Of a DNA stretch of 64,000 nucleotides, positions 20,101-36,263 are shown piece after piece. Positions within the stretch are counted from its first letter, which is position 1. Each line of letters opens with the position of its first letter. The DNA is from a virus, in IMG/VR virus record IMGVR_UViG_3300042308_000216, positions 31,878-95,877 of that record. One strand, written 5' to 3'. A program made the translations under genes and the position numbers. Under the pieces are notes generated by a model. The model did no database searches. It saw only the letters and a list, made by a program, of their open reading frames with translations, and was not told where the DNA came from.

Positions 20101-21461
20101 TTAACTTGAAACTACCTAAAGAAGATTCAGATTTAAGTATAACTACTACAGAAGAACTAGGTGTTGAACAAGTAGCACAAGAAGTATTACCTGCTTTAGA
20201 AGATAGATTAAGAGGATTTTTATCATCTATTAATGTAGATACATTAGTTGTAGATAATTTACAAGAAAGATTAAAAGAAAAAGGATTGAATACTGATGCT
20301 GTTGCAATATCAGATATATTACACAAAGCAATATTCCTAGATTCAGAAAGGTATAATACTATGGATTATGCTGAAGAGGTTGCTACTTTTGCAATTGAGT
20401 TTATGGGAGCTAGTAAACATGCTGAGGCATCTCCTTTAATTAGAAAAGCACTAGACAATATATCAAGTTGGGAAAAATACCAACAATACTATGATTTATA
20501 TAAGGATAATCCTATTTATAAAAACAACGAAAGAAAATTAAAAGTTGAAATACTTAGTAAGCTATTAGCTGAAAAAATAATAGAGAATAAAGATAAAACT
20601 AAAAAAACAAAACAAGATAAAAAGCTAACAACTTTAGAAACTATTATTAATGACATACTAGCTTTGTTTGATAAAATATGGAAATCAGATTACTATAGAG
20701 CTGTTGATAGATTTTTAAAACAAAAAGGTATTCAAACTAAAGGAGTTAATAAAATTAACATTAGACCTTTTGATGCTGTAATAAATGAGATTGTAGATGA
20801 TATACTATTTAATAATACATCTAAAATAATTAATAATGCTAATAGAGCTAGAAAAGGAGAAACTGCTGTTTCTTTAAAAGAAGTTTTAGAAAACAATCCT
20901 ACTATAAATGAGATATATAATAAACTAAACTCTTTAGGTTTTATGTTTACAGGTTCTCCTGCTCTTTCAAATGAAGGAACTATATACAGAGAATCTAATG
21001 ATACTTTACATGATTTAGATTGGCAAGTACCAAAAGAGTTAGAAGATAATTGGTTAGACATAATAAAAGAAACTTTTCCAGAAATAGGGTATAAGATTAA
21101 TGAAAAAACAAATCAAGCTCAGATTTTTAGTAAGGGTGAAAAAACTACTCACACTTTAATGATTAAAGGAATGCCTGTTGACTTTTTTATAAGTGTTAAT
21201 CCTCCATCCAATAAAAATACATTTGGAGATATGAGATGGCAGGATACCTTTGAAGCTAAGATGGATATAGGTAGAGACAAAGACATCAGAGACTTAATTG
21301 ACTTTAAAACTTTATTTAATGATTACTTTTCAAATCCTGGTTACTTATATTATTCTTTAGGTCAAGTTAAACCAGGAAAACAAATTGAAAAATATGTATC
21401 TTTGCAAGATAAGGTTAACACCCTTATAGAAGAAGGTAAAGCAACTAAATTTTGTAAGTAA
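14196..21461 (+). CDS. giant ejected cargo (polyvalent) protein with membrane-type N-terminus, repeat-delimited cassettes, degenerate zincin and C-terminal nucleotidyltransferase
   Basis: 2421 aa; Gly/Ala-rich hydrophobic helices in the N-terminus, long coiled coil, KA(D/E)IE repeats at 18126-19136, GSPAL..G...R....HDLD...DFF...K...RDKDIRD at about 20950-21295. Confidence 0.75.
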   Translation: MPGENLGTTTIAIPLQKIKPYKPTSTTQAVPETYAGPQSRYDDNYFIDQSKMNSEFFQSMRAENQGFGMELATAGANLIPNIALSIGETAGYLFDVEDWSNMIQGNKTDYGNAITKWASDNKNPFGQVYTKSTDGGFDMSDSAWWVSNGGGLVESLVAFGITGFGVGSVLGKSASMLSKTLGAYGKTKFAIEGAAKLGTSLSLAYSEGAMTGAQVFKDVYDDTYNFEYLKNVNAGMGDKEAKARAHYTATDVAGEGATKAVRTNTLINTFLNIPETNVLFRSMGASRYIDDALKLQKGEFARDAVERIKKFDVNKHLTRQGIEHWGKETGSEMLEEMVNVYAEESGKNVGRLATGQDIVSLGDMLANDDIWAAGFWGAIGGSMNGFVMGKMPKWVVQEDGTKKRTTVGAYNKEQVKDKYKEQLTDLQDRLTEFVDARDALDIAAKSGDERAYKEAADKVFSYNSFNSIVKGTEEQLLNDFQEIAAFTPEQAAQQGFASDYKERATEKIQSVRQNTAEWNKIQDRHSSQDLDQAGFPETIFQQHMNVQNNKKIIQDNTIELAKLESEIAQAHVLRGTDLTTTSFNDVKSSIDAVEHAFEMAAKDLSDIDSLSTLDSKTRQKKIAELSNKYGNIENAKIQIQKHLEELEEKREDLFNNLEIQKENFYSFIDPENTMSDDEKLDRYKNIIAQNSSDIYSLTEGKKVLETNRKILASQIEELRVLKSDKGLERFKALKKEKMAERDALDAQAAAKARAEAEAKAKAAKVEEIKVKKKEAPETVTPQEEEIIQANTPVESFEEGVYSGEGSNKEGLEEQYKEITKIADNSDEEGKVKDSSGQTISVGDKLMYGSNKLAYASTVEYIVEDDKIKHTSLKLNPETNPDLLTDKYVPGTKLKIKKLTPEEFKSHEFFAPDNIKFIDEVGREILVANKGQKVTFEMLSHPYMQPIGIYNEAGEYQAMLHAVTYINDNRVVSENVETDLQTLINIRAAVTNEFQDIKLSSKSNGKLNQLPMFYRLSELIDENVEFAIATSSIQLNTSKVTPVENLANTKGYKVGQVYALTVMPDGRKLAVPVKTTKIKENPQVLTELMSALDIFLKGGNREDLQAVFGKYLHSVFSKDKLTPDGNSFQEDPNGNDRFYIDFTSTNVKGIIFGKAGFSKNFISGDTPIDALEGLKKELASIIQESYINLNFQSLKDPDFVKTYVTSNVRFYPLPNGKVTVFDNPVLGFDPSTLINATAPAAKVTPQPIVTPTTQSSESVFNITIEQIKNNIAELRAKEQAEYAAIDPNDTAARKKIYEDYNKLITTLINEAEADIEKRKEAELELESERIVESTEIWKDEEGRLFRIDKLKNGKQRLAATDEEGKLLSVIDIYEGSVSPTKFIADGEKVKDQEVKENKIVDKINAKYKEELDAVKQVKPTTTPISDIETKKADIETAFDYITTRKYKGENNRLNEINKIGEDLAKRFVATLKEKGLVKEDYRMAPRTDGSVEKMKVNTDDKGNNLGNDWSTAGKFKDEFRKFVNVELASLKSKATTTPTAQSTTDTKAEIEKRLKEEIISLEKDLKAIKFKDGNTLGKMFPDWSVEAATFIREHFKKAVTEEDYNKAVRYENLVNHFDAVVKNELNKLTLQPTAQPTAADIKADIENRIVITGTDQGFEVYNTSNIKNEKAGTVADVRRKYSDDKYEIEFGKGDDKKSIFSDINYGQKEDSYHYFITDKKTKKRYYVVGISSRVTGTDPQRDGSLFATIEDDGNITDFTRTVLELALIKEFENQTKKRKNIFRPLPQKFIDKVKAAEQAALGQAQPTPATETPTTPQEKGEFSIQGTFRGLTHVLGDPANMIPDLRDTGFIDKPTFSESVQKGKKFFTLSIPQADDVYRQGYLSVSLVFPETTTKTMADVKAALEAKVAEAKSVIATARDKGSNAEAFLKNKVSAEYTEQPSVTEPVPVVEQQPVPQPTVELKSAGGAKFNLKLPKEDSDLSITTTEELGVEQVAQEVLPALEDRLRGFLSSINVDTLVVDNLQERLKEKGLNTDAVAISDILHKAIFLDSERYNTMDYAEEVATFAIEFMGASKHAEASPLIRKALDNISSWEKYQQYYDLYKDNPIYKNNERKLKVEILSKLLAEKIIENKDKTKKTKQDKKLTTLETIINDILALFDKIWKSDYYRAVDRFLKQKGIQTKGVNKINIRPFDAVINEIVDDILFNNTSKIINNANRARKGETAVSLKEVLENNPTINEIYNKLNSLGFMFTGSPALSNEGTIYRESNDTLHDLDWQVPKELEDNWLDIIKETFPEIGYKINEKTNQAQIFSKGEKTTHTLMIKGMPVDFFISVNPPSNKNTFGDMRWQDTFEAKMDIGRDKDIRDLIDFKTLFNDYFSNPGYLYYSLGQVKPGKQIEKYVSLQDKVNTLIEEGKATKFCK
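18126..19136 (+). repeat. four dispersed in-frame repeats (aagc[t/a]ga[t/a]atagaaa, encoding [K/E]A[D/E]IE) with Pro/Thr linkers
   Basis: Copies at about 18126, 18483, 18831 and 19116; copies 2-4 preceded by cct/act-rich linker codons. Confidence 0.75.
21397..21404 (+). promoter_or_regulatory. putative Bacteroidota -7 promoter element TATCTTTG(C) upstream of the vRNAP gene
   Basis: TAnnTTTG match about 57 nt before ATG 21461; the identical 9-mer precedes the next giant gene. Confidence 0.4.
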
Positions 21462-24400
21462 TGAGTAATTGTCAAACGACTTTCCAGGATAGAACTATCC
21501 CTTCTGGGGATTTTGAATTTCAAATAGCATCTAACCAAATTGATTTATCACCAACAGACAAGTCTGATTTAGATACAATGTCTTTACTGACATTAGACTT
21601 ATCAACAATACCTTTACTATCTCCTGATAAGATTAACTCTGCTCAACAAGAGGAGATGATTAATTGGTTAACAGGTGAAGTAATTAACTTCTCATTAAAT
21701 AATGCTGTTAAAGGTGTTGATGAAAAAGAGTTAATAAATAATGCTTTTAACGATGCATCAGAGCTTCTTAAAAGCGGTGCTTTACAAGCTGTAGAATTAG
21801 GTATACCAATATTAGAAGAAAGAATAAACAGTATTCTTGAGGTATATGATAAGCTAAAAGAGATTGTACAAATTAGAGTTAATAATTTTGGTATTGATTT
21901 TGAAGCTGATGCTGTTACACCAGAAGATGCTACTGAAAATTATGAAGAAGATAAAGCTTTAAAAGTAAATCCTTATACAAAAATTGGTCAGGAAATTAAA
22001 AGACAGCTTTTTACTATTTATGATTTAGATAGTTTACAAGAGGATGGTTCTTACACAGAAGATGATGTAAAAAGAACTTGGTTTGGATTCCCTGCTTACA
22101 AATCTATTAACCAAGTATTACCCACAATACTATCACACTCTAAAGATTTACCTGCAGAGTTTGATGTGATTAAAGCAAAGATGCTAGATAGCAAAGATGC
22201 TAATAAATGGTTTGTACCCTTACTTGATAAATTAAGTGAGGCTGATGGACAAGTTAGAAATCAGTTTTCTAGATGGGCTAGTAAAGCACAAATCAATTTA
22301 AAGTATTTATTGTTTGATACCAAGACTAATGAGTTTCAATTTAACAATAGTAACTCAGGTAGGCAAGTAGATATCATAACTAACAAATGGAAGAATAACC
22401 TTATACAAACAGAGCTATTTAAAATTAATCCAGACACTAATGAGTATGAGTTAGATAGAGAAAAAGCAGATGCTATAACTAAAAACTTTGAAGCATTCAG
22501 TGAAAAGTATAAAATGCTTAAAGAGAATTATCCAGAAGAGTTATTTACAGAACTGGCTGATATCTTAAAAAGTATTGGTGTTGATATTAAACCAAGAGAA
22601 ATTAAAAGAATGCAAAGGTTTCTTGATACACAAGGAACCAAATGGGGGAATAGTCCAAGAGCTAAATTTAGTCAGTTCTTTGTAGCTGATAAAGGTGCAG
22701 TGGATTTTATGATTCAAAGATTATCTAAAGCAGATAAAGAAGCTGAAGGTTCTTTTAATAAATACAATCCACTATCTAATAATACTGGTGTTAGAGCATT
22801 AACATTGTTATACTCTTATTACCAAGAAATTTCTACTAATGATTCTTACAAGAATAGTAACAATGATACTATTTATGCATATAGTCCTAAGAAATATGCA
22901 ACAGACCAATTTCAAAGAATAGCTGATACAGCTTATTTAGGTAGATTAATGGAAACTCAATTTGCTAGTAACTCTACTTGGGGTAAAGCATTGATGTCTG
23001 AGGATCCTGATACAAGAGCTAGATTTCTAGAAGTATTCACATTAGATTATTTTGATGGTGCTACAGGTAAAGGCTCTAAATTAAATACTCCATTTGACCA
23101 ACTATCTGCATCTGAAAGAGAAAAGTTTTTACTGACTTGTTTTCAAAACCAAAATAGAAAAGTACAAAGTAAATACAGATATGGTTCTACTTCTTATCTA
23201 ACTATGTCTGATAAGAAAACCTTAATTAGTGTTCAACATATATTAGAAGATGTTGATATTAATCCAGAAACAAATAAGCTAGGTAGTAAAAGTATTGACT
23301 TATTATATCAAGTATTTAAAGCAGAGCAGCAAAGGATTAGAGAATTTGAAGCATTAAGTGCAGAGAATAAAAAAGGTTTATCAAAAGAATATGTAAAAGG
23401 TGCAAAAGAGTATATCTTAAATCCTTGGGTTACAAAATATAAAGCTGAAGGAAAAGAACTTGACTCATCAGAAGATGTTAAAATAGCTATTGAAGAATAC
23501 TATAATGATATTATAAATACTAAAATAGCTACTTGGAAAGAGGTTGGTATTATATCTACAGATAATGAAGATAATATAACTACAACTTTTGATAAAGAGT
23601 ATTTTGAGAATGTTAAAAATAGTAAAGTAGGTAGTAAAGCAAATATTAATGCTGCTATTGCTTATGCTGCTATTGACTATGAAGTAAATACAATAATTGG
23701 TAACTTAAATCTATTTCAATTATTTGCTGGTGACCCAGCTAGTTATTGGAAAAACAATGTTGATGATACATTAGTAAATGTTGGTAAACGTCTAGCAGCA
23801 CAGATTGCTCCTGGAGATTCATTAGCTAATACTAGATATACAGACATTGCTGGTATTAATGGGCATAGCTATACACAAGTTATTGCTAAAGACCATAAAA
23901 TGATATCATCATCTATCAAGTATCTAACTAAGCTGCTTGATGGTAAAGAAGTTACTGATAAAGAGATTGAAGATTATAGAGCAGGTAATACTAAAGCAAT
24001 AGAAGAAAAATATCCTAATGCTGCAGCTTACTTTGATATAGAAGCTACTGATGCTCAGGAATATACTACAGCATTAGAGCATGCTTACAATCTATACCAT
24101 GAAGGTAAGTTATCTGATAAAGTATATAAAGACTTAGCAAATAAATTAATTAATGATAGAGAGTTAAGTGATAGTGATGTTAAAGTGCTAATGCAACCTA
24201 TGAAACCAGTTTACTTTAATGGTGATGTTAAGTCAGCAGGTACTGGTTCATTAAATTATTATGATATGTCTTACATTAAGACTTCATCATTTCCATTGTT
24301 AAAAGAATTTACAGTAGGTACTGAGCTTGACAAGTTAAGAAAACAACTAGAGAAATTACAAGACCCAACTGGTTCTAAAGACCCTAGCCAAATTAAACTT

Positions 24401-27400
24401 GTTAGAATGGTAATGAGTTCAGGTATTAAGATTGGTGCTGTGCAGAATCCTGTAACAGTATTCAATCCTGATGGAACAGTTAATCCTGATATTGACTTTA
24501 CAAGCTCTACAAAGTCTTTAACTAGAGATGGATATAGAATTCAGTTAGAGGTTCCTTTAAAAGATAAGAAAGAAGTTAATAGAGGTACACAAGAGATTAA
24601 ACTTTTGTTTACAGATTTACTTGACCATAAATTTGCTAATGGTAAAACAGGACAACAGTTAAAAACTGAATACCTTGATTTAAACAGACAACTATTTAAA
24701 ACTCAATTAGAGATATTTAAAAACCAAATAGATGCAGATGAAAAAGGTGAATTTAATATTCAACTATTAAGAGATAAACTAGTAGAAGAAGCACAATCAA
24801 GAAACTTTTCACTGAATGAGATTGAGTCTTTGAGACTAGTTGATTTAGACTCTGAAGGTAAGTTTGTAATTCCATTAGTTTTTAACTCAGCATCAGATAA
24901 GTTTGAAAGCTTAATGATTTCTTTAATAGATAACTCTGTTAGAAAACAAAAGCAAACTGGTTACAGCTCTCCATTAGGTTCATCTTCTGGATTTAAATTT
25001 CAGAATGACCTTAAAAGTATAGATAAGAGTAAAATTATTTGGGTTGAAGGTTTTGATCCATCAGGAGATTTAAAGCAACAAAGAATTGTAGATGGTAAAG
25101 TAAGAGGTTCACAAGTATTTGTACCTTGGAAATTCAGAGATAACAATGGTAAGCTTTTAAATGCAAAAGATTTTACTAAAGAGTTGCCTGATGGTAGAAT
25201 AGTAATTGATCATGATAAATTACCAAAAGATATATTAAAGTCATTTGGATTTAGGATTCCTACACAGGGATTAAACTCAATGGCTTATATTGAGATTGCA
25301 GGATTTTTACCAGAAGAATCTGGTGACTTGTTAATTGCACCTGCTGAATTTACAAAGCAGATGGGTTCTGACTTTGACATTGATAAATTATATAGTTACT
25401 TATATACTACAGAATTTAATTATAAAACTGGTAAACTAGAAAAGTTTGTATTTAATAATAAAGATGTATTTGAAATACTATCTAGTACTAACTCTAGTTT
25501 AGTTACTAAAGACAATAAAGATTACAGATTAAAAACATTAATCAAAGAGTTTGGATATATTAAAGTAGCCAAATCTCTTTTCCAATTTTATAACAGTAAA
25601 ATAGATACTCTTAAAAAAGAGTTAGATGATAAGTGGTCATTACATGAAGCTTTTGTAAGTAATGTACTAGACACTATTGATGTTAAAGAAGCATCATTGG
25701 ATACAAATAAAACATTAATCAATAAAGCTTTTAGAGAGAATGAAATCTATGTTGCTTTCTTGAGAGATGAGTTATCAGAGTTAAGGTCTGTAATATCTGC
25801 ATTAGAGAAAAATGAATTAGATGAAGGTGTTAATGAATACCTTGTAGATAAATTTGATATCTATGTAGATGAAGTAAGAACAGAAAGTATAAATGAATTA
25901 CTTAGAAAAGAGTTTGAATTAAATAATAGATTAGAAAAATCTGTTGTAATAAAAGAAAGTCTTAAGAAGTTTAATGCTTCTATTAGTGATACTGTAAAAG
26001 TTGCTTTAGATATTAAGAATGATATTTTTGAGACTAAAAGAGATTTAAGAAATATATTAAAGTACACTAGTACATTACAGAATGAAATTCTAGATATGCA
26101 CATCACAGTGCTATCTGACCCATCAGATTTAGTACAGTCTAAAGTAACATCAGCATTAGGATTTGGTAAGCTAGGTGAACTTAAAAAGGTATATGATAAA
26201 GAATCTAAATCAAAAGCAGAAAGTACTAGCCCTTTATCATCAGGATACCAATCTCAGAAATATTTATCTGCAAGAGGTGGTAAAGCAGGTACAGGATACT
26301 TTAGTGCATTAAATGTATTTGTATCTGTTATGCAGGGACTAGGATTAAAGTATAATGTATCTACTCCTGTAGATAATGGTAAATTTGCAATGATAGAGAA
26401 AAACCTAGTTATCCATAAAAAAGGTAATGGGTTGAGTAAGAATGTTGATAACATGAATAACCTTAAATCTGAGAATGCTGTAGCATACCAATCAGCAGCT
26501 GTGGATGATGAGAAAGAACAGATTATGGCTTCTCTTAATATCACATCAGAAACATTCTATGCTATTGGTGCATGGATATTAGATGGTCATTCACAAGAAG
26601 CTATTACAGGTATTTTAACTCAGCCTATTGTTGCTGAGTATATCAATGCAATCAATAATAAAACAGATATTTTTTCAGATTTTACTAAGAATGCAGATCT
26701 TATTGTGTTTAATGAGTTGTATGAAAAGTACTCTAAGATGACAGGTCTTAGTCAAGAAATATTAAATGAAACTGATTTTAATAATACTGTATTATCAGAA
26801 GATGTTTTATGGAATTCTTACAAAGCTACTACTAAAGATGCTAATTGGGCTATGACTCAATTAACTGCTCTACATAAATTTAGAGAAGCTGATGTTATGG
26901 GTAAAAGCATACAAAAAACCATCAGTGCATTTAGTGTGGATTCTAAAGGATTAGGTAAATCTTTTATAGAAGTTGGTTTAAAGTTAGATGATATTAAAAC
27001 TGAAAGAGAAAGTGGTAAAATTACTAACATAGAAAAACTACTTAATCAATCTGTAGGTGGATTAGCTGTGCAATATTCTTTAGAAACAGTTCACCAACTA
27101 TTTAGTAAGTTCTACCCATACTTAATTCCTGAAAGTTATAACAAAGTTACTTTTGATGAGTATTTACAAGTTACATTTAAAGATAATCTTTCAGCAGAGC
27201 AAAGAGAAAAAGAGTTTAGAGATTTCTATAACCACATGAAAGCTGGTGTGTATGCAAATATGCTTCAGCAACCTGGTGTAGATTTATATACTAGAAGAAA
27301 AGAGTTAATGTATGGTGAAAATTCATTAGGTAAAAGAGTACAAGAACTGCAAAAAACTACTAAGAACCCATTTTTAATTAAACTTACTCCTAATGTAGCT

Positions 27401-30400
27401 ACTATTGTAGGAGATCCTGATACAGTAAGTATGAGGTCTATTGGTGGTGAGTTATTTAATGAAGATGATTTATATGTTGGCTTTTTAGATTTATTTAATA
27501 AACCTGAAAACAGACAGTTAGCTAAAGACTTAGTTGATTACTTCTATATTAATGGTGGTAGTCAGAAAGCTAGAGAGTTTTCTAAATATATTCCAACTGG
27601 GTTTATGGTTGCTAGTGGTTATGCAGATAGTTTAAGAAGTGCTAACTTATTTAACCTATCAAATATTCTAGGTTCACCTCAAATGTTTTTACAGAACTAC
27701 ATCAGAAACAATCCTAGTAAAGCACCTCAACTTAATAGAGGAGATTATACTATGAGTCCTGATGGTAAAGTCACTGTTACTAGTGACCAATTTACATATG
27801 TACCTAAAAATGGTGTTGATGTTGGTGTTAGTACAGCAATACCTTATGTTTCAATACCAGAAGTAAAAGTAAATCCAGATGATAGTATTAAAGTAACTAT
27901 AAGACTTTACATGTATGATGACCAAGGTAGTTATGTAGAAATTCCTAGATTGGGATTTACAACATCAAACTATTCAGGTACAGAGTATGGTAGTAGATAT
28001 TCTGCTATAGATTCTAATGCTGTAAAACAAAGAGTTCAAAATCCTAATACAGTGCAAGAACCTGTTAGGCAAGAAGCTAGTTCAGATCCTGTTATTCCAA
28101 ATAGTATTAAAGTAGCTGCTAATGACTTTGAAGCACTAAACATTAATAAGGTTAATAACAAAGAAGATGTTAAAGTAACACTATCTATTATTAATAACAG
28201 TACATCAAAAGCATTATTAGACTTACTTGATAAAATAGGTAGCTTAACTTTAGAAGCTACTCCAGGTAATTCTTCATATAAAGCAGGTAGAATTACAATA
28301 GATAGTAGAATTAAAGATCCATCTGTACTACAAACTAAAGTATTGCATGAAGTTACACATGCTGTAACATCTGAAATAATTAATAAAATACTATTAAACC
28401 CTAATAACCCTAACTTTGAAGGATTATCTGAATCTCAAAAGTTAGCTTACATGAGGTTAAATAAAACATTTACTACATTAAGACAATCTGTAATTGATGG
28501 TAGAGTACCTGGATTAAACAAAGAAGGATTAGAATTATTTGAAGCTAAAATAGATGCCCTTAAAAAAGGTCAAAAAGGAATTGACTTTACACCAGATGAT
28601 GTTGAGTATAATCCATATTTAAATCTTAAAGAATTTTTAGCAGAAGCATTTTCTAATACTACTTTTCAAAAGCAATTAGATGCTATGAAATTTACTGAAG
28701 ACAGATCAATGCTTCAGAAGTTGTTAGAAGATATTGCAAACTTCTTAAATAAATTTGTAGCTGACTACAATAAAGATAATGTACTTGCTTCTGTACTATA
28801 TGATGGGTTTACACTAGCTGGTGGTAATGAAGTAAATATTTATTTTAAATCTGGTGAAAATAGAATACTATCTAATTTAAATTTAAATTCTTTTACAGGT
28901 AAAGATGGTAAAAGATATGCTTCTGTAGAACATGCATACCAATCTTGGAAATCAGGATCATTTGATGAATCAACATATACATCTCCTAATTGGGTATTTA
29001 ATGGTGGAGATAATTATAAAGTATCTGGTAATAAAGGTACTAAAACAGAAAACAATTGGAATCTAGATTTAATGAAAGGTCTTATTAGACAATCATTAGA
29101 TCAAAACCCAAATGCTAAACAAGCATTACTTAATACAGGAGATAAAATACTTACTCATAACCAAGATAATACTATTTGGAAAAATGCTTTTCCTCAGATA
29201 TTAATGGAATTAAGAAAAGAGTATTATGATGCAGGATTATCTGGTGTTAACAATCCAAGTGATTATGTTAATCACTCTGGTGGTGCTGTAGGTTCTGATG
29301 AATCTTGGGATATTATAGGTAGACAATTTGGTGTAACACAGCATAAGCATTACAGAGAACCAGGTGCATTAAAGCTAGACTCAGCTGAACTTGATAGTAG
29401 AGGTATTAAACCTGTAAATGTATCTGAAGCTTTATACAATGAAGGTATTCAAAAATCTACTAGAGCAGCTCAACAAATGTATGGGTTAAAAGGTCAGATA
29501 AAAATGAATTACATTATTCGTAATTGGGCACAAGTTAAAAATGCTGACTCTATATATGCAATAGGTGTAATTCTTAAACCTGGTAATAGACTTAATACAA
29601 AAGATGATAGAATAGCTTTAGTACCACAAGTAAAAGGAGGTACAGGATATGCAGTACAGATGGCTATTAATGAAGGTAAGCCTGTATATGTATATGATGG
29701 CACAAAGAATGGGTGGTTTAAATATGATTACAATATAAAAGATTTTGTACCTACAAGTATACCAACACTTACTAAAAACTTTGCTGGTATAGGCTCAAGA
29801 AAATCTCAAGATTGGAATAAAGATTTACAAGCTATTAGAGATGTTTATGCTAATACTTTTAAAGTACAGCAAGATACTTCTACAAATACTGGAGGTAATC
29901 CAAAAGGAGAGAAAATTGCTGATGGTATGTATGTAAACCAACAAGGACTATCTCCACAAGAAGAACTTGAATTATTTGAACTTGTTAGACCAATTTTAGA
30001 GCAACAAGCTGTAAAAAGTAATAAAGGTAAATCAGCTCCTAAAATGGCTGGATTAAATTTAAATTGGGATTATGTAAGTAATAGAAGAGGGCAACAGACA
30101 AGAATAAATGTTGGAGAAACATTAAAACCTAATGATACTTATGGTTGGTTTACACAATCTGCTAATGGTCAAGAGTTATATCCAATTACTGGTAGAATGA
30201 TAGAGTTAATGAGTAAAGCTACTGGTATAGATGTTAGTAATTATGATGGTTCTATTATAAATATATATGATTCTAATAGTTTTATTGGTAACCATCCTGA
30301 TATTGATGAAAGTAAGACAGCAGAAAAATATCCTGTTGTTGTTGTTAATATAGGAGGTCCAGGAAATATTGTATTAGGTAATAAAAAAGTTGATTTAAAT

Positions 30401-32407
30401 TCAGGAGCAGGTTATGTATTTGGATTTGAAGGTAAAAATAGAACTATACCTCATTCTACTTATGCAGCACCTATTAAAGGTACATTACCATCTATAACAA
30501 CAAGTATGGATGGTGAGACATTAGCAGCTGGTTCTTATAGAGTTTCAATTACTATGAGAAGAGTTATGCCTTTAGAGCAAGGTATGCCTAGTAAACCAAA
30601 TACAGTTAATACCATATCTAAAACTCAACCTGTTGAAACTAGTACTGAAGAAATTCAACAAAACTTAGCTGAACCTACACCTCAACCTCAGAAGAGTACA
30701 TTTACATATAAAAATAAAACTATAGAAACTGAGTTTAAACTAACAAATGGTCAAGTAAATGCAATAGAAAGACTTACTGATTTTGCATTAGGTAACACTA
30801 AAACAATTACATTGCAAGGAGCTGCTGGTACAGGTAAAACATCTGTTATAGGTTACTTACAAAAGTTCCTAGGTGACAACTATAACTTTATTTATATGGC
30901 ACCTACACATGCAGCAACTGCTGAGTTAGCAACTGCTACAGTTAAGTCAGGTAATAGAGATTTACCTATGACTGTACAATCTGCATTTAATAAAAGACAG
31001 AATCAAGATACTGGTGAGTGGGAATATGGTACTACTAAAAAGTTAAATAATAAATTAGAGTATACAGATAATATTATTGTAATAGATGAAGTATCTATGT
31101 TAGCTGATAAAGACTACAACATAATACTAGATGCTATTAAAAAGAAACAGATTCAAGTTATCTTTATGGGTGACATACTTCAGATACCTGAAGTTGATAC
31201 TAATAATCCAGAAAGAAAAAGTGTATCAAAAGCATTTTCTGCTAATGAGCAAGTATTACTTACTGAAGTAAAAAGAACTGATGATAATGATATACTTACA
31301 ATCTTAACAGAACTTAGAAACAACCCAACAAGTTTAATACCAGTAATACCAAATAGTAATAGATTACAGTATTTAGACCAAGGAGAGTTTGATAATCAAA
31401 TAGTAGAAACTATTAGAATAGAACCTGAAGAAACTGTACTACTTAGCTATACAAATAATGGTGTTAAAGACAGTAATAGAAAATTAAGAAGAGCATTAGG
31501 TAGAGTTGGTAATCTACAAGAAAATGATATTATAGTTGGTTTTTCAGGTTACAAGTCTAAGCAAATTGAAAAAGGAAACATTGCTAATAGTGTTAGATAC
31601 ACTGTAGAAAATGTTGAAAAAGATGGTAGTAATTATATTATAACAGCAAAATCTCAAAAGCTAAAGGCTTTAGAAGATTTAGGTGTAAAGAATGTAAATG
31701 AATATGCAGTAGGTACATACAAACAATTATCAGCAAATGATTCTTTAGTATTTGAAGACCTTACTAATGAAGACCTTGAAAAAAACAATAGAGATGTTTC
31801 AGAAATATTAAAACTAGTTTATGATACTAAGCAAGCTGCTGTAGCTAGAAGAATTAGATGGAATGTATATGATGCTGCTTTAGCTAAAGCATCTATGTAT
31901 TTTGAAAATGTTAATTTAGGTAGTGACTATGTTTATAATCCAAATACAAATAGAATGGAGTTATACAACTATATAGTTCATGGTGACATACTTAAAAACT
32001 TTGCAGAGTTAAAAGTAGAAAAAGGTATTGACTATGGTCATGCTATTACTATACATAAATCTCAAGGTAGTACAATCAAGAATGTATTTTTTGATGCTAG
32101 TACTTTACCTCAAGGAACATCTTCTAAATTAATACAGAATGGTAATCAAATAAGTACTGAGAAGCATTCTTTAATCTATGTAGCTCTATCAAGAGCATCT
32201 AATATGTTAGTAATTAATAAATCAAATATTAGTAATTTCTATACATTGAACAAAGATTCTAGAAACACAACAGATAATTCAATATCTTTGCCAAAAGATT
32301 TAGGTATGGACAATCTTGAATTTATGAAAGATTTAGATAAACAAGAAAGAGCTGCATATCGTAAATTATTTAATGATGGCACTTTTAAAGTAAAATGTAA
32401 TGGGTAA
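21461..32407 (+). CDS. virion-packaged RNA polymerase (phi14:2 gp66-like) fused to zincin, NADAR, SLOG, AlkB and SF1B helicase domains
   Basis: Catalytic QMGSDFDIDKLY (DFDID 25370-25384), GFRIPTQG, TDAQEY; HEVTH at 28346; NADAR SVEHAYQ; SLOG HSGGAVGSD and GGTGYAV; AlkB HPD..H..RVSITMR; helicase GAAGTGKT, DEVSM, HKSQGST, YVALSRA. Confidence 0.92.
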   Translation: MSNCQTTFQDRTIPSGDFEFQIASNQIDLSPTDKSDLDTMSLLTLDLSTIPLLSPDKINSAQQEEMINWLTGEVINFSLNNAVKGVDEKELINNAFNDASELLKSGALQAVELGIPILEERINSILEVYDKLKEIVQIRVNNFGIDFEADAVTPEDATENYEEDKALKVNPYTKIGQEIKRQLFTIYDLDSLQEDGSYTEDDVKRTWFGFPAYKSINQVLPTILSHSKDLPAEFDVIKAKMLDSKDANKWFVPLLDKLSEADGQVRNQFSRWASKAQINLKYLLFDTKTNEFQFNNSNSGRQVDIITNKWKNNLIQTELFKINPDTNEYELDREKADAITKNFEAFSEKYKMLKENYPEELFTELADILKSIGVDIKPREIKRMQRFLDTQGTKWGNSPRAKFSQFFVADKGAVDFMIQRLSKADKEAEGSFNKYNPLSNNTGVRALTLLYSYYQEISTNDSYKNSNNDTIYAYSPKKYATDQFQRIADTAYLGRLMETQFASNSTWGKALMSEDPDTRARFLEVFTLDYFDGATGKGSKLNTPFDQLSASEREKFLLTCFQNQNRKVQSKYRYGSTSYLTMSDKKTLISVQHILEDVDINPETNKLGSKSIDLLYQVFKAEQQRIREFEALSAENKKGLSKEYVKGAKEYILNPWVTKYKAEGKELDSSEDVKIAIEEYYNDIINTKIATWKEVGIISTDNEDNITTTFDKEYFENVKNSKVGSKANINAAIAYAAIDYEVNTIIGNLNLFQLFAGDPASYWKNNVDDTLVNVGKRLAAQIAPGDSLANTRYTDIAGINGHSYTQVIAKDHKMISSSIKYLTKLLDGKEVTDKEIEDYRAGNTKAIEEKYPNAAAYFDIEATDAQEYTTALEHAYNLYHEGKLSDKVYKDLANKLINDRELSDSDVKVLMQPMKPVYFNGDVKSAGTGSLNYYDMSYIKTSSFPLLKEFTVGTELDKLRKQLEKLQDPTGSKDPSQIKLVRMVMSSGIKIGAVQNPVTVFNPDGTVNPDIDFTSSTKSLTRDGYRIQLEVPLKDKKEVNRGTQEIKLLFTDLLDHKFANGKTGQQLKTEYLDLNRQLFKTQLEIFKNQIDADEKGEFNIQLLRDKLVEEAQSRNFSLNEIESLRLVDLDSEGKFVIPLVFNSASDKFESLMISLIDNSVRKQKQTGYSSPLGSSSGFKFQNDLKSIDKSKIIWVEGFDPSGDLKQQRIVDGKVRGSQVFVPWKFRDNNGKLLNAKDFTKELPDGRIVIDHDKLPKDILKSFGFRIPTQGLNSMAYIEIAGFLPEESGDLLIAPAEFTKQMGSDFDIDKLYSYLYTTEFNYKTGKLEKFVFNNKDVFEILSSTNSSLVTKDNKDYRLKTLIKEFGYIKVAKSLFQFYNSKIDTLKKELDDKWSLHEAFVSNVLDTIDVKEASLDTNKTLINKAFRENEIYVAFLRDELSELRSVISALEKNELDEGVNEYLVDKFDIYVDEVRTESINELLRKEFELNNRLEKSVVIKESLKKFNASISDTVKVALDIKNDIFETKRDLRNILKYTSTLQNEILDMHITVLSDPSDLVQSKVTSALGFGKLGELKKVYDKESKSKAESTSPLSSGYQSQKYLSARGGKAGTGYFSALNVFVSVMQGLGLKYNVSTPVDNGKFAMIEKNLVIHKKGNGLSKNVDNMNNLKSENAVAYQSAAVDDEKEQIMASLNITSETFYAIGAWILDGHSQEAITGILTQPIVAEYINAINNKTDIFSDFTKNADLIVFNELYEKYSKMTGLSQEILNETDFNNTVLSEDVLWNSYKATTKDANWAMTQLTALHKFREADVMGKSIQKTISAFSVDSKGLGKSFIEVGLKLDDIKTERESGKITNIEKLLNQSVGGLAVQYSLETVHQLFSKFYPYLIPESYNKVTFDEYLQVTFKDNLSAEQREKEFRDFYNHMKAGVYANMLQQPGVDLYTRRKELMYGENSLGKRVQELQKTTKNPFLIKLTPNVATIVGDPDTVSMRSIGGELFNEDDLYVGFLDLFNKPENRQLAKDLVDYFYINGGSQKAREFSKYIPTGFMVASGYADSLRSANLFNLSNILGSPQMFLQNYIRNNPSKAPQLNRGDYTMSPDGKVTVTSDQFTYVPKNGVDVGVSTAIPYVSIPEVKVNPDDSIKVTIRLYMYDDQGSYVEIPRLGFTTSNYSGTEYGSRYSAIDSNAVKQRVQNPNTVQEPVRQEASSDPVIPNSIKVAANDFEALNINKVNNKEDVKVTLSIINNSTSKALLDLLDKIGSLTLEATPGNSSYKAGRITIDSRIKDPSVLQTKVLHEVTHAVTSEIINKILLNPNNPNFEGLSESQKLAYMRLNKTFTTLRQSVIDGRVPGLNKEGLELFEAKIDALKKGQKGIDFTPDDVEYNPYLNLKEFLAEAFSNTTFQKQLDAMKFTEDRSMLQKLLEDIANFLNKFVADYNKDNVLASVLYDGFTLAGGNEVNIYFKSGENRILSNLNLNSFTGKDGKRYASVEHAYQSWKSGSFDESTYTSPNWVFNGGDNYKVSGNKGTKTENNWNLDLMKGLIRQSLDQNPNAKQALLNTGDKILTHNQDNTIWKNAFPQILMELRKEYYDAGLSGVNNPSDYVNHSGGAVGSDESWDIIGRQFGVTQHKHYREPGALKLDSAELDSRGIKPVNVSEALYNEGIQKSTRAAQQMYGLKGQIKMNYIIRNWAQVKNADSIYAIGVILKPGNRLNTKDDRIALVPQVKGGTGYAVQMAINEGKPVYVYDGTKNGWFKYDYNIKDFVPTSIPTLTKNFAGIGSRKSQDWNKDLQAIRDVYANTFKVQQDTSTNTGGNPKGEKIADGMYVNQQGLSPQEELELFELVRPILEQQAVKSNKGKSAPKMAGLNLNWDYVSNRRGQQTRINVGETLKPNDTYGWFTQSANGQELYPITGRMIELMSKATGIDVSNYDGSIINIYDSNSFIGNHPDIDESKTAEKYPVVVVNIGGPGNIVLGNKKVDLNSGAGYVFGFEGKNRTIPHSTYAAPIKGTLPSITTSMDGETLAAGSYRVSITMRRVMPLEQGMPSKPNTVNTISKTQPVETSTEEIQQNLAEPTPQPQKSTFTYKNKTIETEFKLTNGQVNAIERLTDFALGNTKTITLQGAAGTGKTSVIGYLQKFLGDNYNFIYMAPTHAATAELATATVKSGNRDLPMTVQSAFNKRQNQDTGEWEYGTTKKLNNKLEYTDNIIVIDEVSMLADKDYNIILDAIKKKQIQVIFMGDILQIPEVDTNNPERKSVSKAFSANEQVLLTEVKRTDDNDILTILTELRNNPTSLIPVIPNSNRLQYLDQGEFDNQIVETIRIEPEETVLLSYTNNGVKDSNRKLRRALGRVGNLQENDIIVGFSGYKSKQIEKGNIANSVRYTVENVEKDGSNYIITAKSQKLKALEDLGVKNVNEYAVGTYKQLSANDSLVFEDLTNEDLEKNNRDVSEILKLVYDTKQAAVARRIRWNVYDAALAKASMYFENVNLGSDYVYNPNTNRMELYNYIVHGDILKNFAELKVEKGIDYGHAITIHKSQGSTIKNVFFDASTLPQGTSSKLIQNGNQISTEKHSLIYVALSRASNMLVINKSNISNFYTLNKDSRNTTDNSISLPKDLGMDNLEFMKDLDKQERAAYRKLFNDGTFKVKCNG
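32283..32290 (+). promoter_or_regulatory. putative Bacteroidota -7 promoter element TATCTTTG(C)
   Basis: TAnnTTTG match about 110 nt before ATG 32400. Confidence 0.35.
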
Positions 32408-35400
32408 AACTTGTAGGGTAATTTCAAATGATGATATTTTTAATTCTTTAGAAGAATTAATGCATCAACATGTAGCAACTGTATTGAGGACTAGATTTGA
32501 GATGGCTAAAGAGGCTGGTACTGCTGATAGAATGTTAACTTTTCTTATTGATAGATACAAAAAGCACAAGAATAGACAGCCAGAAGATAGAATATTTGAT
32601 AACTACAAAGATGCTAGAGACTATTTTTTAAATACAAGACAAAACTATGACCTTGTAAACCCACCTAGAAAGATTGTAGGTAGTGGTAGCTATGCAGTGT
32701 ATTCATACTCAGGTATGCAATATGCTAATATTATCAGTCAGTTATCAGAAAAACTTGATGAAGAACTAAGCTACTATGAAGAAAAAACTATAGAAGAAAT
32801 TAGAACTAAGCAAAAAGAAGCTAATGAAATCTTTAATGATGAAGGTGAATTATATGCTCCTGATGGTGACATTGACTATTCTGTTAGTATAGAATCACAA
32901 TATGACTTTGTACTTAAAAGAAAAAAGGAAGAGATGACTAACCTTGACAGGTTAATTGCTTTAGAAAAGTCTAAAAGAAATACTGAGAATGTTGAGAAAT
33001 TAACTAAGGCTAAAGAAAGATTAGAGGAAGATATTAAAAAACTAATTGATACTCCTAACTTTTCTGATATAATGAATATAGCATCTGATGATTTAGAAGA
33101 GATAAATACTATTTTAGATAAAGATATGCTATCACCACAAGATCTAGTTATTGTAAAAAACAAACTTGAGTTTTGGTTGAGTGATAAATTTAGAGATGCT
33201 TTTTTTACTAGTGCAGATAAGATTAATGAAGTACCTAGTTATAAAGCTTTTTTAGTTAAAAAAGGAGAGTTTGATAGAAAGAGAGTTCAATGGGAAGACT
33301 TAGCTTCTGCTTACATGAATAGTGTTATTAAAGATGTTACTAATAATAACTATACAGTAGAAGAGCTTAAGATAATGAAAAAACAATTACTAGAGATTAA
33401 TATTGGTCAAGGTCAGATGAGAGATTTATCTACTGACTCTAATATCTTTATTCAAGTAATTGATACTAAAATGAAAGAAGCTAGTGAATTTGCTAGACAA
33501 GAGGTACTTACTTTTCAAAAGAAATTAACTGAAGAAACAGAAGCTTTAATAAAAAGAGCAGGTACTAATAATCCTAAGAAATTATATGAACTGTTTTTAC
33601 AATTAGATTCTAAAGGCAACTGGTCTGGTGGTGTTGTAAATAGATTTTCTCAAAAGTTTTTTGATGCTAGACAAGCAATACAAGTTACAGATTGGTCAGA
33701 TACTGAGAAAGTAAAAGCTAAATACAAATGGTTAAAAGAAAACACAATTACTTTTGACCCTCGTAAACTATTTTATGAAGATTACCTAGAAATGGAAGAA
33801 GGTAATCGTCCAGCATTATTTGATGAAGAGTCTAGAGAAGCTCATATACAAGAACTTAAAAGAGAACTTGGTGAAAGAGGCTTTGCTAATTACTTTGAAA
33901 AACAAAAGAAAGTATTTGAAGATTTCAAAGAAAGATATAATGAGCTTAAAAATACTACAGAAGGTACAGAAGAAGAAGTTAAAGCTGCTTTAGATGCATG
34001 GAAAAAAGAATGGTCTCCATTCTACTACCTTGATAAAACAACAGGTGCTAATGTAAGTGCTGGTAAATTTTTAGGTTATAATTATATTGTAAGTGTACCT
34101 AGAAGATTTAAAAGAGATGGTGAGCCTACTGGTTGGTATGATAAAAACTTTGATAGAATTGAAGCAGACCCTGATTATTTAAAATACTATGAATTCTTAA
34201 CAGATTCTCTACAGAAGTTTAAAGCATACTACCCATCAGATAATGAGTTACAAACAAATTACTTACCTGAGCTTAGAGAAACCCAAGTATTAAAACAATT
34301 CTTTACTAATCCATTAGCATTAAAATCTAATCTATATGATTTCTTTATAGACCAGACAGCAGAAAATGAGATATTCCAAGATCAAACAGATTCTATGGGT
34401 AATCTTATTAGAATATTACCTGCACATATGATGTCTAATAATATGTCAAAACTAAGTGCAATAGAAAAAAGAATACTTGTTGATGAAGCAGTTAAGAAAA
34501 TACCTGATACTACTAGTGTAGAGTTTAAAGCTTTATTGCAACAAATGCAGTATGATGCAATACAAAAGAAACTTAAAGAAAAATCTTTTGATTTATTTAA
34601 AGTATTATCAGCACATGCTGTAACAGCAGAAACTTACAAACATAAAACTAGAACAGAAGATTTTCTTAGAATAGCAAAAGACTTTGTTTATAATGCAGAA
34701 AGAATAAATGTAACTGCTAATGGACAAACAAGTTCTTCTATCATGGGTTTCAATACACAAAAAGATGGTTTAAGAAATCTAATTAATGCTTTTGATTATG
34801 CTGTAGATTCTTGGTATGGTTTAAATAAAAATAAAAAACCGGGTAAACTAGTAGCTAAAGATTTAGAATCTAAAAAGAAAATAGAAGACTATGAAGCCAG
34901 TTTAAAACAGTTAAAAGAGTCAGAGCAAGATGACGAAACTGTAAAAAAAATCAAGGCTATTGAAGAAAATATTAGATCATTACAAAAAATATTTATCACT
35001 TCAAATGCTTCAGACTCTGTGCTTAAATATATCCATATAAAGTCTATGGGTTGGAATCCATTCTCTGCAGTAACTAACTTAGGTTTTGGTTTTATATCTA
35101 ACTATACACATGCAGCAGGTGAGCAAGACTTTACTTCTGAAGAACTTAATAAAGCATATGCTTATTTACTAAACAATGTTTTCAGAGCAACAAGAGCTGT
35201 TAATATGAAAACTGCAGTTAAGATAAGCCAGCTTATGATGGAGTATGGTGTAGTTGGAGATATTAGAGAAGGTACTGGTAGTCATGCTATTAAAGGTATT
35301 AAAGAAAAATTTAAAATTCTATTACCTTATGAAATGACTAGTAGAGCAGAGTTTGTTAACCAAGGTTCTACATTTATAGCAATGATGCTTAATACAAAAA

Positions 35401-36263
35401 ATATTAAAGATTTAGCTAATAATGACAGAACTCTATTTGATGCTTACACATTAGATGCTGATAATAACCTTATATGGAATGAAGCTGAATTTGGTCCACA
35501 AGAAGCATGGCAATCTTTAGGTAAAAATAAAACTGCTTTTAAATTAAAAGTAGAAGCTGTTAAAAAGATTATTCATGGTAACTATGACCCTAATAGTCCT
35601 GTTGCAATTAAAAAGACAGCTTTAGGTAGAGCACTAATGATGTTTAGAAACTGGGTAGCTGAAGGTTTTGCTAACAGGTTTGAATCTGAATATGAAAATA
35701 TTAAGTTAGGTAGACAAGTAAAAGGTAGATATAATTCTTTTTATAATGCTAAAACAAAAGAAGGTGAACCTGTTGGTATTGGTAGGTCAATAAGCTTAAC
35801 TTTACAAGAGATGGCTAGAATATTTACAAAAGGAATGTATAATTCTAAAGGTGTTAATGCTCTTACAGATGTAGATAAAGCTAACCTCAAGAAAAATGCC
35901 ATGGAGTTAAATATTTATTTATCTATACTAGCATTGACTATGTTACTTAAATATATGAAAGATGATGATGATGAAGAAGATGCTATGTTTTTAACTTTTA
36001 TGATTAATAATCTTAATAGACTTCAAACTGATATAACTTTCTATACTAGTCCATTATCTTTTGAAAAACTACAAAGAAATAGTATTCCTGCTTTTGGATT
36101 TATTACTGATATTGCTAGATTAAATAAAGCTGCTTACAAATATATTATGGGTAGAGATGGTGAAAATGGCTCTACTACTTTTTTAGAATCTTTCTTTAGA
36201 GTCTTTCCTATGGGATTTGCTTACTACAGAACAGAAGCTCTTTTAGAAGAAGTACAAGAATAA
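32400..36263 (+). CDS. large ejected cargo protein with C-terminal membrane segment
   Basis: 1287 aa helical protein after the vRNAP; IHGNYD...LGRALMMFRNW motif and hydrophobic LNIYLSILALTMLL followed by an acidic DDDDEED run, typical of the last crAss-like ejection protein. Confidence 0.75.
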   Translation: MGKTCRVISNDDIFNSLEELMHQHVATVLRTRFEMAKEAGTADRMLTFLIDRYKKHKNRQPEDRIFDNYKDARDYFLNTRQNYDLVNPPRKIVGSGSYAVYSYSGMQYANIISQLSEKLDEELSYYEEKTIEEIRTKQKEANEIFNDEGELYAPDGDIDYSVSIESQYDFVLKRKKEEMTNLDRLIALEKSKRNTENVEKLTKAKERLEEDIKKLIDTPNFSDIMNIASDDLEEINTILDKDMLSPQDLVIVKNKLEFWLSDKFRDAFFTSADKINEVPSYKAFLVKKGEFDRKRVQWEDLASAYMNSVIKDVTNNNYTVEELKIMKKQLLEINIGQGQMRDLSTDSNIFIQVIDTKMKEASEFARQEVLTFQKKLTEETEALIKRAGTNNPKKLYELFLQLDSKGNWSGGVVNRFSQKFFDARQAIQVTDWSDTEKVKAKYKWLKENTITFDPRKLFYEDYLEMEEGNRPALFDEESREAHIQELKRELGERGFANYFEKQKKVFEDFKERYNELKNTTEGTEEEVKAALDAWKKEWSPFYYLDKTTGANVSAGKFLGYNYIVSVPRRFKRDGEPTGWYDKNFDRIEADPDYLKYYEFLTDSLQKFKAYYPSDNELQTNYLPELRETQVLKQFFTNPLALKSNLYDFFIDQTAENEIFQDQTDSMGNLIRILPAHMMSNNMSKLSAIEKRILVDEAVKKIPDTTSVEFKALLQQMQYDAIQKKLKEKSFDLFKVLSAHAVTAETYKHKTRTEDFLRIAKDFVYNAERINVTANGQTSSSIMGFNTQKDGLRNLINAFDYAVDSWYGLNKNKKPGKLVAKDLESKKKIEDYEASLKQLKESEQDDETVKKIKAIEENIRSLQKIFITSNASDSVLKYIHIKSMGWNPFSAVTNLGFGFISNYTHAAGEQDFTSEELNKAYAYLLNNVFRATRAVNMKTAVKISQLMMEYGVVGDIREGTGSHAIKGIKEKFKILLPYEMTSRAEFVNQGSTFIAMMLNTKNIKDLANNDRTLFDAYTLDADNNLIWNEAEFGPQEAWQSLGKNKTAFKLKVEAVKKIIHGNYDPNSPVAIKKTALGRALMMFRNWVAEGFANRFESEYENIKLGRQVKGRYNSFYNAKTKEGEPVGIGRSISLTLQEMARIFTKGMYNSKGVNALTDVDKANLKKNAMELNIYLSILALTMLLKYMKDDDDEEDAMFLTFMINNLNRLQTDITFYTSPLSFEKLQRNSIPAFGFITDIARLNKAAYKYIMGRDGENGSTTFLESFFRVFPMGFAYYRTEALLEEVQE

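Follow-up and report, generated by a model that had tools for sequence, protein, structure and literature searches.

The DNA analysed here, referred to as the window, is a stretch of 64,000 nucleotides (nt) corresponding to bases 31878-95877 of the 95.9-kb IMG/VR virus record IMGVR_UViG_3300042308_000216, with a guanine plus cytosine (GC) content of ~30%. On its + strand, at 21461..32407, it contains one uninterrupted open reading frame (ORF) of 3648 amino acids (aa), in which a predicted crAss-type virion RNA polymerase (RNAP) is continued by a long polyvalent tail. The new feature of this protein is that four enzymes, a NADAR domain, a SLOG domain, an AlkB-type 2-oxoglutarate (2OG)-Fe(II) dioxygenase and a Dda/RecD-like SF1B helicase, are found in a variable bay located between a zincin-like module and a C-terminal peptide of ~50 aa.

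The bay is delimited by two anchors. The upstream one, the zincin-like module (aa 2220-2430; 28118..28750, + strand), is kept in 8/8 close relatives up to the segment ...YDGF(T/V)LA. The downstream one (aa 3599-3648; 32255..32404, + strand) has the sequence ...SLPKDLGMDNLEFMKDL...FKVKCNG, and a common end of ~50 aa, ...SLPxDLGMDNLEFMKDLxKxERxxYRKLxxxxxxK(V/I)KCNG, terminates the protein in all eight of these relatives, whatever cassettes precede it. The anchors are 72-88% identical in relatives whose cassette sets differ, with clean indels. Thus P0007, 84-86% identical to the tail, is without exactly aa 2810-3048, which correspond to the AlkB cassette, and P0008, 75-89% identical, is without aa 2599-2830, which contain SLOG. 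P0010 is 77% identical over the zincin-like module and NADAR, which are followed by an unmatched 156-aa block and a divergent helicase (28%), and P0012 (27-60% identity, depending on the block) presents an AlkB-SLOG order and a divergent helicase. P0059 (44% identity to the tail) has NADAR only, P0025 (72% in the zincin-like module) has an unmatched block and a different NADAR, which at 50.1 bits passes the Pfam cut-off, and P0032 and P0033 (~72% in the same module) contain ~300 aa of unmatched sequence. Since both anchors are kept and the contents differ, the enzymes fill a slot of ~150 to 1150 aa between fixed anchors. The cassettes of P0032 (aa ~2291-2600), P0025 (aa ~2306-2452) and P0010 (aa ~2441-2596) match no Pfam family and are candidates for new effector domains.

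In more distant giant proteins the same four modules are reordered, for example as AlkB-SLOG-NADAR-helicase or SLOG-AlkB-NADAR-helicase. In one lake sample (run X9), a more abundant relative is ~87% identical to the present DNA up to ~29220, diverges from it, and rejoins it at ~32295 (aligned stretches 27900-29220 and 32295-32452), the C-terminal peptide being kept in this variant as well. This pattern points to phages that occur together and differ in what their bays contain. The four-domain order described here is a single configuration of a slot whose contents are rapidly shuffled, and not a fixed machine. The C-terminal KCNG peptide may represent a packaging or docking signal. A short word shared by three of the junctions, (A/S/T)-G-(G/V)-N, is not kept in relatives and corresponds to no boundary repeat family, and it was attributed to chance.

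The zincin-like module contains the motifs HEVTH (aa 2296-2300; nt 28346-28360) and KEFLAEA (aa 2390-2396; nt 28628-28648). Among 18 aligned sequences, there is almost no variation in the Glu and the second His of HExxH or in the downstream EF; the alignment was assembled from whole giant proteins, and the row of P0093 in it is misaligned. No match to aa 2161-2455 was found in Pfam, NCBIfam or the PDB sequences, only 14 representatives among 1.8 billion proteins reach an E value of 1e-3 in an exhaustive search, and scans of viral contigs for relatives returned one near-identical contig only. A weak lead from the ESM Atlas toward LPD23 (18% of the members of one cluster) was not confirmed by Pfam. 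The AlphaFold (AF2) model, with a predicted local distance difference test (pLDDT) of ~80-90 over residues 60-270, is composed of a three-stranded sheet (103-121), the HExxH helix (127-150) and a later helix with the conserved Glu (229-238; all in model numbering). Its matches in BFVD, with E down to 4e-5, include internal core proteins of T7-like podophages, "large polyvalent protein associated domain" proteins, N4-like virion RNAPs, a phi14:2 structural protein and a crAssphage "RNAP associated protein fused to zincin protease". The best fold match in the PDB is the tetrameric ejection protein of PhiM1 (Z 9.7 over 147 residues, root mean squared deviation (RMSD) 3.5), whereas classical zincins reach only Z 4-5; the top rank in Foldseek was N4 gp50. 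The part of the PhiM1 protein, a T7 gp16 analogue, that is matched comprises residues 278-515, and the paper reporting this structure does not contain, in its text, the words zincin, metallo-, peptidase or protease. We read the module as a zincin-like type that recurs in ejected podophage proteins, its proteolytic activity being putative. An ejection-protein fold at this position fits delivery of the protein together with the DNA.

The first cassette of the bay is NADAR, a putative ADP-ribosyl-base glycohydrolase (aa 2456-2591; 28826..29233, + strand), with Glu2490 and Lys2497 in the motif VEHAYQSWK, followed by His2566 and Trp2573. As a single sequence it matches Pfam PF08719 with E 1.1e-5, at 26.2 bits against a gathering cut-off of 35.1. 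A profile built from 17 relatives finds E. coli YbiA (2b3w, E 6.5e-5) and the NADAR entry 8bau (E 0.023); of these 17 relatives, 13 have a match to PF08719 and two to the T4 gp30.3 family (Pfam Phage_30_3). E2490 and K2497 are invariant in the 17 sequences, and their spacing, seven residues apart, is that of E36 and K43 in AdfN, residues that are both essential to counter-defence (PMC11257639). AdfN (gp30.3), the orphan NADAR of T4 that neutralises DarTG1 (PMC11257639), has an identical Glu-x6-Lys catalytic pair, but it is a free-standing product, whereas the NADAR described here forms part of a probable virion protein.

The SLOG cassette (aa 2599-2809; 29255..29887, + strand) contains the motifs HSGGAVGSD, RNWAQVK, GGTGYAVQMAIN and FAGIGSR. 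Twenty-five relatives have SGGAxGxD, RNWxQVK, GGTGYAVQMAIN and FAGIGTR in common, SGGAxGxD and GGTGYA being invariant in the alignment. None of the 25 family members was convincingly matched in a Pfam search, the family profile found no match among PDB sequences, and single-sequence searches of the PDB with the zincin-like module, NADAR and SLOG returned noise only; a fold search was therefore needed for SLOG. The AF2 model (pLDDT 90.9) has a Rossmannoid fold whose Gly-rich loops follow strand 1 and precede helix 4, and its nearest structure is 3imk, annotated as "putative molybdenum carrier" (Z 13.1, RMSD 3.9, 149 aligned residues). The next matches are DprA (Z 7.2), TM1055, which is LOG-like (6.8), ShosA (6.5) and YpsA (6.4), and then MCP, in agreement with Foldseek. 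No circular permutation is seen, the domain being colinear with 3imk, DprA and LOG and starting with strand 1 and then the Gly loop. In the motif line-up, the position of the catalytic Glu of LOG (PGGxGTxxE) is occupied by an invariant Gln (Q2733 in GGTGYAVQ), so that the cassette is not a LOG-type glycosidase. Its probable ligand or substrate is a nucleotide or an ADP-ribose (ADPr) derivative.

The AlkB-type cassette (aa 2810-3048; 29888..30604, + strand), a predicted oxidative dealkylase and the segment missing from P0007, matches Pfam PF13532 over profile positions 3-194 of 194 with E 8.9e-7, its 29.8 bits being 1.4 short of the cut-off of 31.2. A profile of seven sequences finds 5xeg with E 2.2e-12 and E. 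coli AlkB with E 1.1e-6, and the HxD motif and the second His line up with both structures. The NxY pair (N2934/Y2936), the HxD (H2945/D2947) and H2998 are invariant in the alignment, and the RxxxxxR pair, R3027...R3033 in RVSITMR, is also present. The last cassette is the helicase (aa 3093-3587; 30737..32221, + strand), in which Walker A (GAAGTGKTS) and Walker B (VIDEVSM) and motifs III, V and VI were all located, within a set that includes GDILQIPEV, TIHKSQGST and VALSRAS. It matches the Pfam families AAA_30 (78 bits, E 1e-21), UvrD_C_2 (32.7 bits) and AAA_19, all above cut-off, as well as the Dda-like phrog_325 (E 9.5e-62), the RecD2 and RecD families of NCBIfam, and Dda itself (3upu, E 8.4e-7).

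Ahead of the bay, the RNAP core (aa 672-1329; 23474..25447, + strand) matches phi14:2 gp66 (PDB 6VR4) with E 8.2e-26 and PHROG 16227 (phrog_16227) with E 3.5e-64, and its DxDxD metal-binding motif is DFDID (aa 1304-1308; nt 25370-25384). By this homology and motif, the protein is predicted to be a crAss-type single-chain two-barrel virion RNAP. The gp66 protein has been found experimentally to be an ejected virion RNAP (10.1101/2020.03.07.982082; PMC7886860), which transcribes single-stranded DNA (ssDNA) well and double-stranded DNA (dsDNA) poorly, and QDE-1, a eukaryotic relative of it, requires a helicase and RPA (10.1101/2020.03.07.982082). The two phages also resemble each other in that the RNAP, with its DFDxD motif, belongs to a block of giant virion proteins and is associated with a zincin-like module, gp65 in phi14:2, and fusions of phi14:2-type gp65, gp66 and gp67 occur in some crAss-like phages (10.1101/2020.03.07.982082). 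However, no NADAR, SLOG, AlkB or helicase has been described in phi14:2 gp66 (2194 aa, 6VR4 chain), whereas in the present protein the zincin-like module lies C-terminal to the RNAP, in one chain with it, and precedes the four-cassette bay and the conserved terminal peptide.

The first-pass annotation of this stretch, made from the sequence alone, had proposed a single 3648-aa ORF with DFDID followed by zincin, NADAR, SLOG, AlkB and SF1B helicase segments. Each of these assignments stands, and the five segments were placed to within a few codons. It had also called for a survey of domain turnover at the C-termini of Crassvirales virion RNAPs. A survey seeded on the RNAP core alone found a relative encoded in at least 549 IMG/VR stretches, and the scan of ORFs covered 79 of the 80 best loci. 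One or more of the modules were present in 20/79 of the RNAP ORFs sampled (SLOG in 10, NADAR in 7, the helicase in 5 and AlkB in 1). They were invariably within the RNAP ORF, and none was found in the neighbouring ORFs within 10 kb of the RNAP at these loci. These are minimum counts, as the hidden Markov models derive from close relatives and locus ends truncate some of the ORFs.

The SLOG family, the most widespread of the modules, is found in other contexts as well. In the gut Crassvirales phage cr113_1, it is located close to the C-terminal end of a giant coding sequence (CDS) that contains DFDxD and is automatically annotated as "DprA-like". This CDS (gp38 of crAssphage cr113_1; L140 1-9813) has 50 in-frame stops under table 11, which is consistent with stop-codon reassignment as reported for some crAss-like phages. 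Standalone copies are present on jumbo-phage-sized contigs and in jumbo phages. Moreover, SLOG is located inside the T7-type (N4-like) virion RNAPs of Klebsiella phage Pylas (L059 12001-12528, aa ~977-1168) and Alteromonas phage PT15-A5 (L141 9001-9372, aa ~1114-1266). There the family has become associated, by convergence, with an ejected polymerase of unrelated type.

The gene is the ninth of a row of co-directional ORFs on the + strand, several of them very large (1599, 1636, 611, 2421, 3648 and 1287 aa), one of which matches a PHROG virion structural family. It closes a + strand block of giant virion or cargo ORFs, and the replication module is on the opposite strand beyond it, with ribonucleotide reductase, primase, a DnaB-like helicase, another helicase and a family A DNA polymerase. 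This layout is the crAss-like arrangement set out by Yutin et al. (PMC7886860). The ORF of 2421 aa upstream (14196-21461) and that of 1287 aa downstream (32400-36263) have no Pfam (E 0.01) or PHROG match; the latter starts at 32400 and shares the last 8 bases of the 3648-aa ORF, including its stop. With six distinct modules in one ORF of the structural/cargo block, among them several unrelated enzymatic domains and a zincin, the "polyvalent" framing of the first-pass annotation is well founded.

As the sequence comes from a metagenome contig and two of the domains score just below their Pfam cut-offs, it was considered whether the long ORF might be an assembly chimera, or its tail a decaying relic without function. 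This is hardly credible. The tail DNA (27900-32500) recurs in metagenomes of lake water and freshwater from numerous studies dated 2016 to 2025, no RNA data set being listed among the sequencing runs that contain it. In runs not marked as a possible source of the record, single contigs span 27900-30545 and 28934-31222 with zero differences while further contigs span 30826-32500. These independent lake contigs overlap across the tail, so that every cassette junction is bridged by independent assemblies, which effectively refutes a chimeric origin; the 3648-aa ORF is not an assembly chimera. In addition, the frame stays open for 10.9 kb in DNA of 30% GC, and the catalytic residues are invariant among relatives. 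Two joints seen in read mapping, with short sides of 21-31 nt and a likeness of 85%, were treated as belonging to other organisms, and a megablast search of GenBank phages found no near-identical ORF.

On balance, we favor the view that the protein is a virion-packaged RNAP of a freshwater crAss-like phage, co-ejected with the DNA and carrying effector domains. The enzymes would then enter the cell ready-made with the first DNA and strip host-inflicted or spontaneous base adducts from the single-stranded template, and the Dda-like helicase, of predicted 5'-3' polarity, would unwind the duplex for an RNAP that prefers ssDNA. DarT toxins modify ssDNA, NADARs reverse the ADP-ribosylation of guanine, and AlkB prefers single strands. 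Given this common preference of the three partners (the gp66-type RNAP, NADAR against DarT damage, and AlkB), the most economical reading would be a unit, loaded in advance, by which the first template is opened and cleaned. It is possible, although we put it forward only tentatively, that the tail is a transcription-coupled template-preparing unit, in which the helicase opens the duplex and NADAR and AlkB, perhaps with SLOG, clear the exposed strand of ADP-ribose and alkyl adducts, and that the slot is a recombination hotspot by which pre-loaded counter-defence enzymes are exchanged among crAss-type phages and, convergently, among N4-type phages. Several points weigh against delivery of such a working set of enzymes. 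We know of no host defence that alkylates phage DNA. The single sequences of NADAR and AlkB each fall slightly below the Pfam gathering cut-off, a protein of 400 kDa must unfold to traverse the tail of a podophage, and the SLOG domain, with Gln in place of Glu, may be ligand-binding only. The tail might also be cleaved before packaging, as in P1 DdrB (PMC5512222), and certain phage NADARs that are active in vitro give cells no DarT1 protection (PMC11125620).

Two other readings of the tail have to be weighed. In one of them, which we regard as unlikely, the tail is delivered, with NADAR and SLOG acting on soluble NAD-derived immune signals or toxins (of the cyclic ADP-ribose (cADPR) type, or ADPr derivatives) and not on DNA adducts, AlkB resetting methyl marks, and the helicase taking part in anti-restriction or protein displacement and not in supplying template to the RNAP. 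For viral NADAR and YpsA-like SLOG, a role of this kind was argued by Iyer et al. 2022 (PMC9503650), in a work that notes the co-occurrence of both domains, sporadic SLOG-SF1 helicase fusions and virion-packaged NADAR; it also agrees with the SLOG pocket residues, which are invariant across the family, and with SLOG being the commonest module on RNAP ORFs, often without the helicase. Nevertheless, every NADAR assayed to date hydrolyses guanine-ADPr on DNA (PMC11125620), AlkB has no known small-molecule signalling substrate, and a single protein copy, as delivered by ejection in each infection, does not seem sufficient to deplete a diffusible signal. In the other, the tail enzymes are not injected at all, and the fusion ensures only late co-expression, the zincin or a host protease freeing the enzymes before packaging for use in replication, repair or packaging within the producing cell. 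Pre-encapsidation cleavage is documented in phage P1 DdrB (PMC5512222), Dda-like helicases are separate genes in gut crAss-like phages, and standalone copies of the SLOG family exist on jumbo-phage-sized contigs. We find this reading improbable, as the C-terminal peptide beyond the cassettes is kept in every relative, which is hard to square with discarding everything past the zincin-like module. Furthermore, the N4 virion RNAP is packaged unprocessed despite its zincin (PMC5512222), and the modules found near an RNAP are always in the RNAP ORF.

The first-pass annotation had also supposed the architecture to be undescribed, which is correct for the combination of domains and not for the principle, since the key papers searched mention no AlkB, NADAR or SLOG on crAss-type RNAPs and polyvalent injected proteins, including the N4 virion RNAP fused to an MPTase zincin, have been published (Iyer et al. 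2017, PMC5512222). The protein described here is similar to those of N4 type in being a giant ejected polypeptide, by the reading we favor, in which variable enzymatic effectors are joined to a virion RNAP and a zincin-like module, with a proposed action in the first moments of infection. It differs from them in its polymerase, the N4 RNAP being of the T7 single-subunit type and unrelated to the two-barrel RNAP, and in its effectors, which in that work are ART, lysozyme, PBECR and others; the words NADAR, AlkB, SLOG, SF1 and crAss are absent from its text. Packaged NADAR, SLOG-NADAR pairs, YpsA-like SLOG with NADAR or Macro, and the SLOG-SF1 fusions are found in Iyer et al. 2022 (PMC9503650), where an early deployment from the virion was predicted for NADAR. 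The neighborhood of NADAR and SLOG and the link of SLOG with an SF1 helicase are common to those systems and the present protein, but their domains are typically standalone proteins, with neither AlkB nor a crAss-type RNAP carrier. Multidomain giant proteins and the zincin of crAss-like phages are described in Yutin 2021 (PMC7886860) and in the gp66 preprint (10.1101/2020.03.07.982082), both of which leave NADAR, SLOG, AlkB and helicase tail enzymes unmentioned, and a full-text literature search for crAss together with AlkB returned nothing relevant.

A phage is most exposed before the expression of its first gene. As related phages fill the slot differently, it looks like an exchangeable repair or counter-defence kit for the first minute of infection. 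Because its anchors are fixed, the slot can readily be located in metagenomes and mined for new anti-defence enzymes, also among cassettes that belong to no recognised family, like the ~300-aa insert of P0032. It further constitutes a natural test bed, with close relatives that differ by single cassettes. If the reading that we favor is true, a polymerase with its own helicase and lesion erasers would indicate that DarTG-like defences can be met without new synthesis, and it would offer an answer to how the ssDNA-preferring virion RNAP of crAss type starts on a double-stranded genome. The tentative model of a transcription-coupled tail and an exchange slot, if true, would account for the ability of gp66-like RNAPs to use dsDNA templates in vivo, and would establish the "effector bay" as a general element of ejected polymerases.

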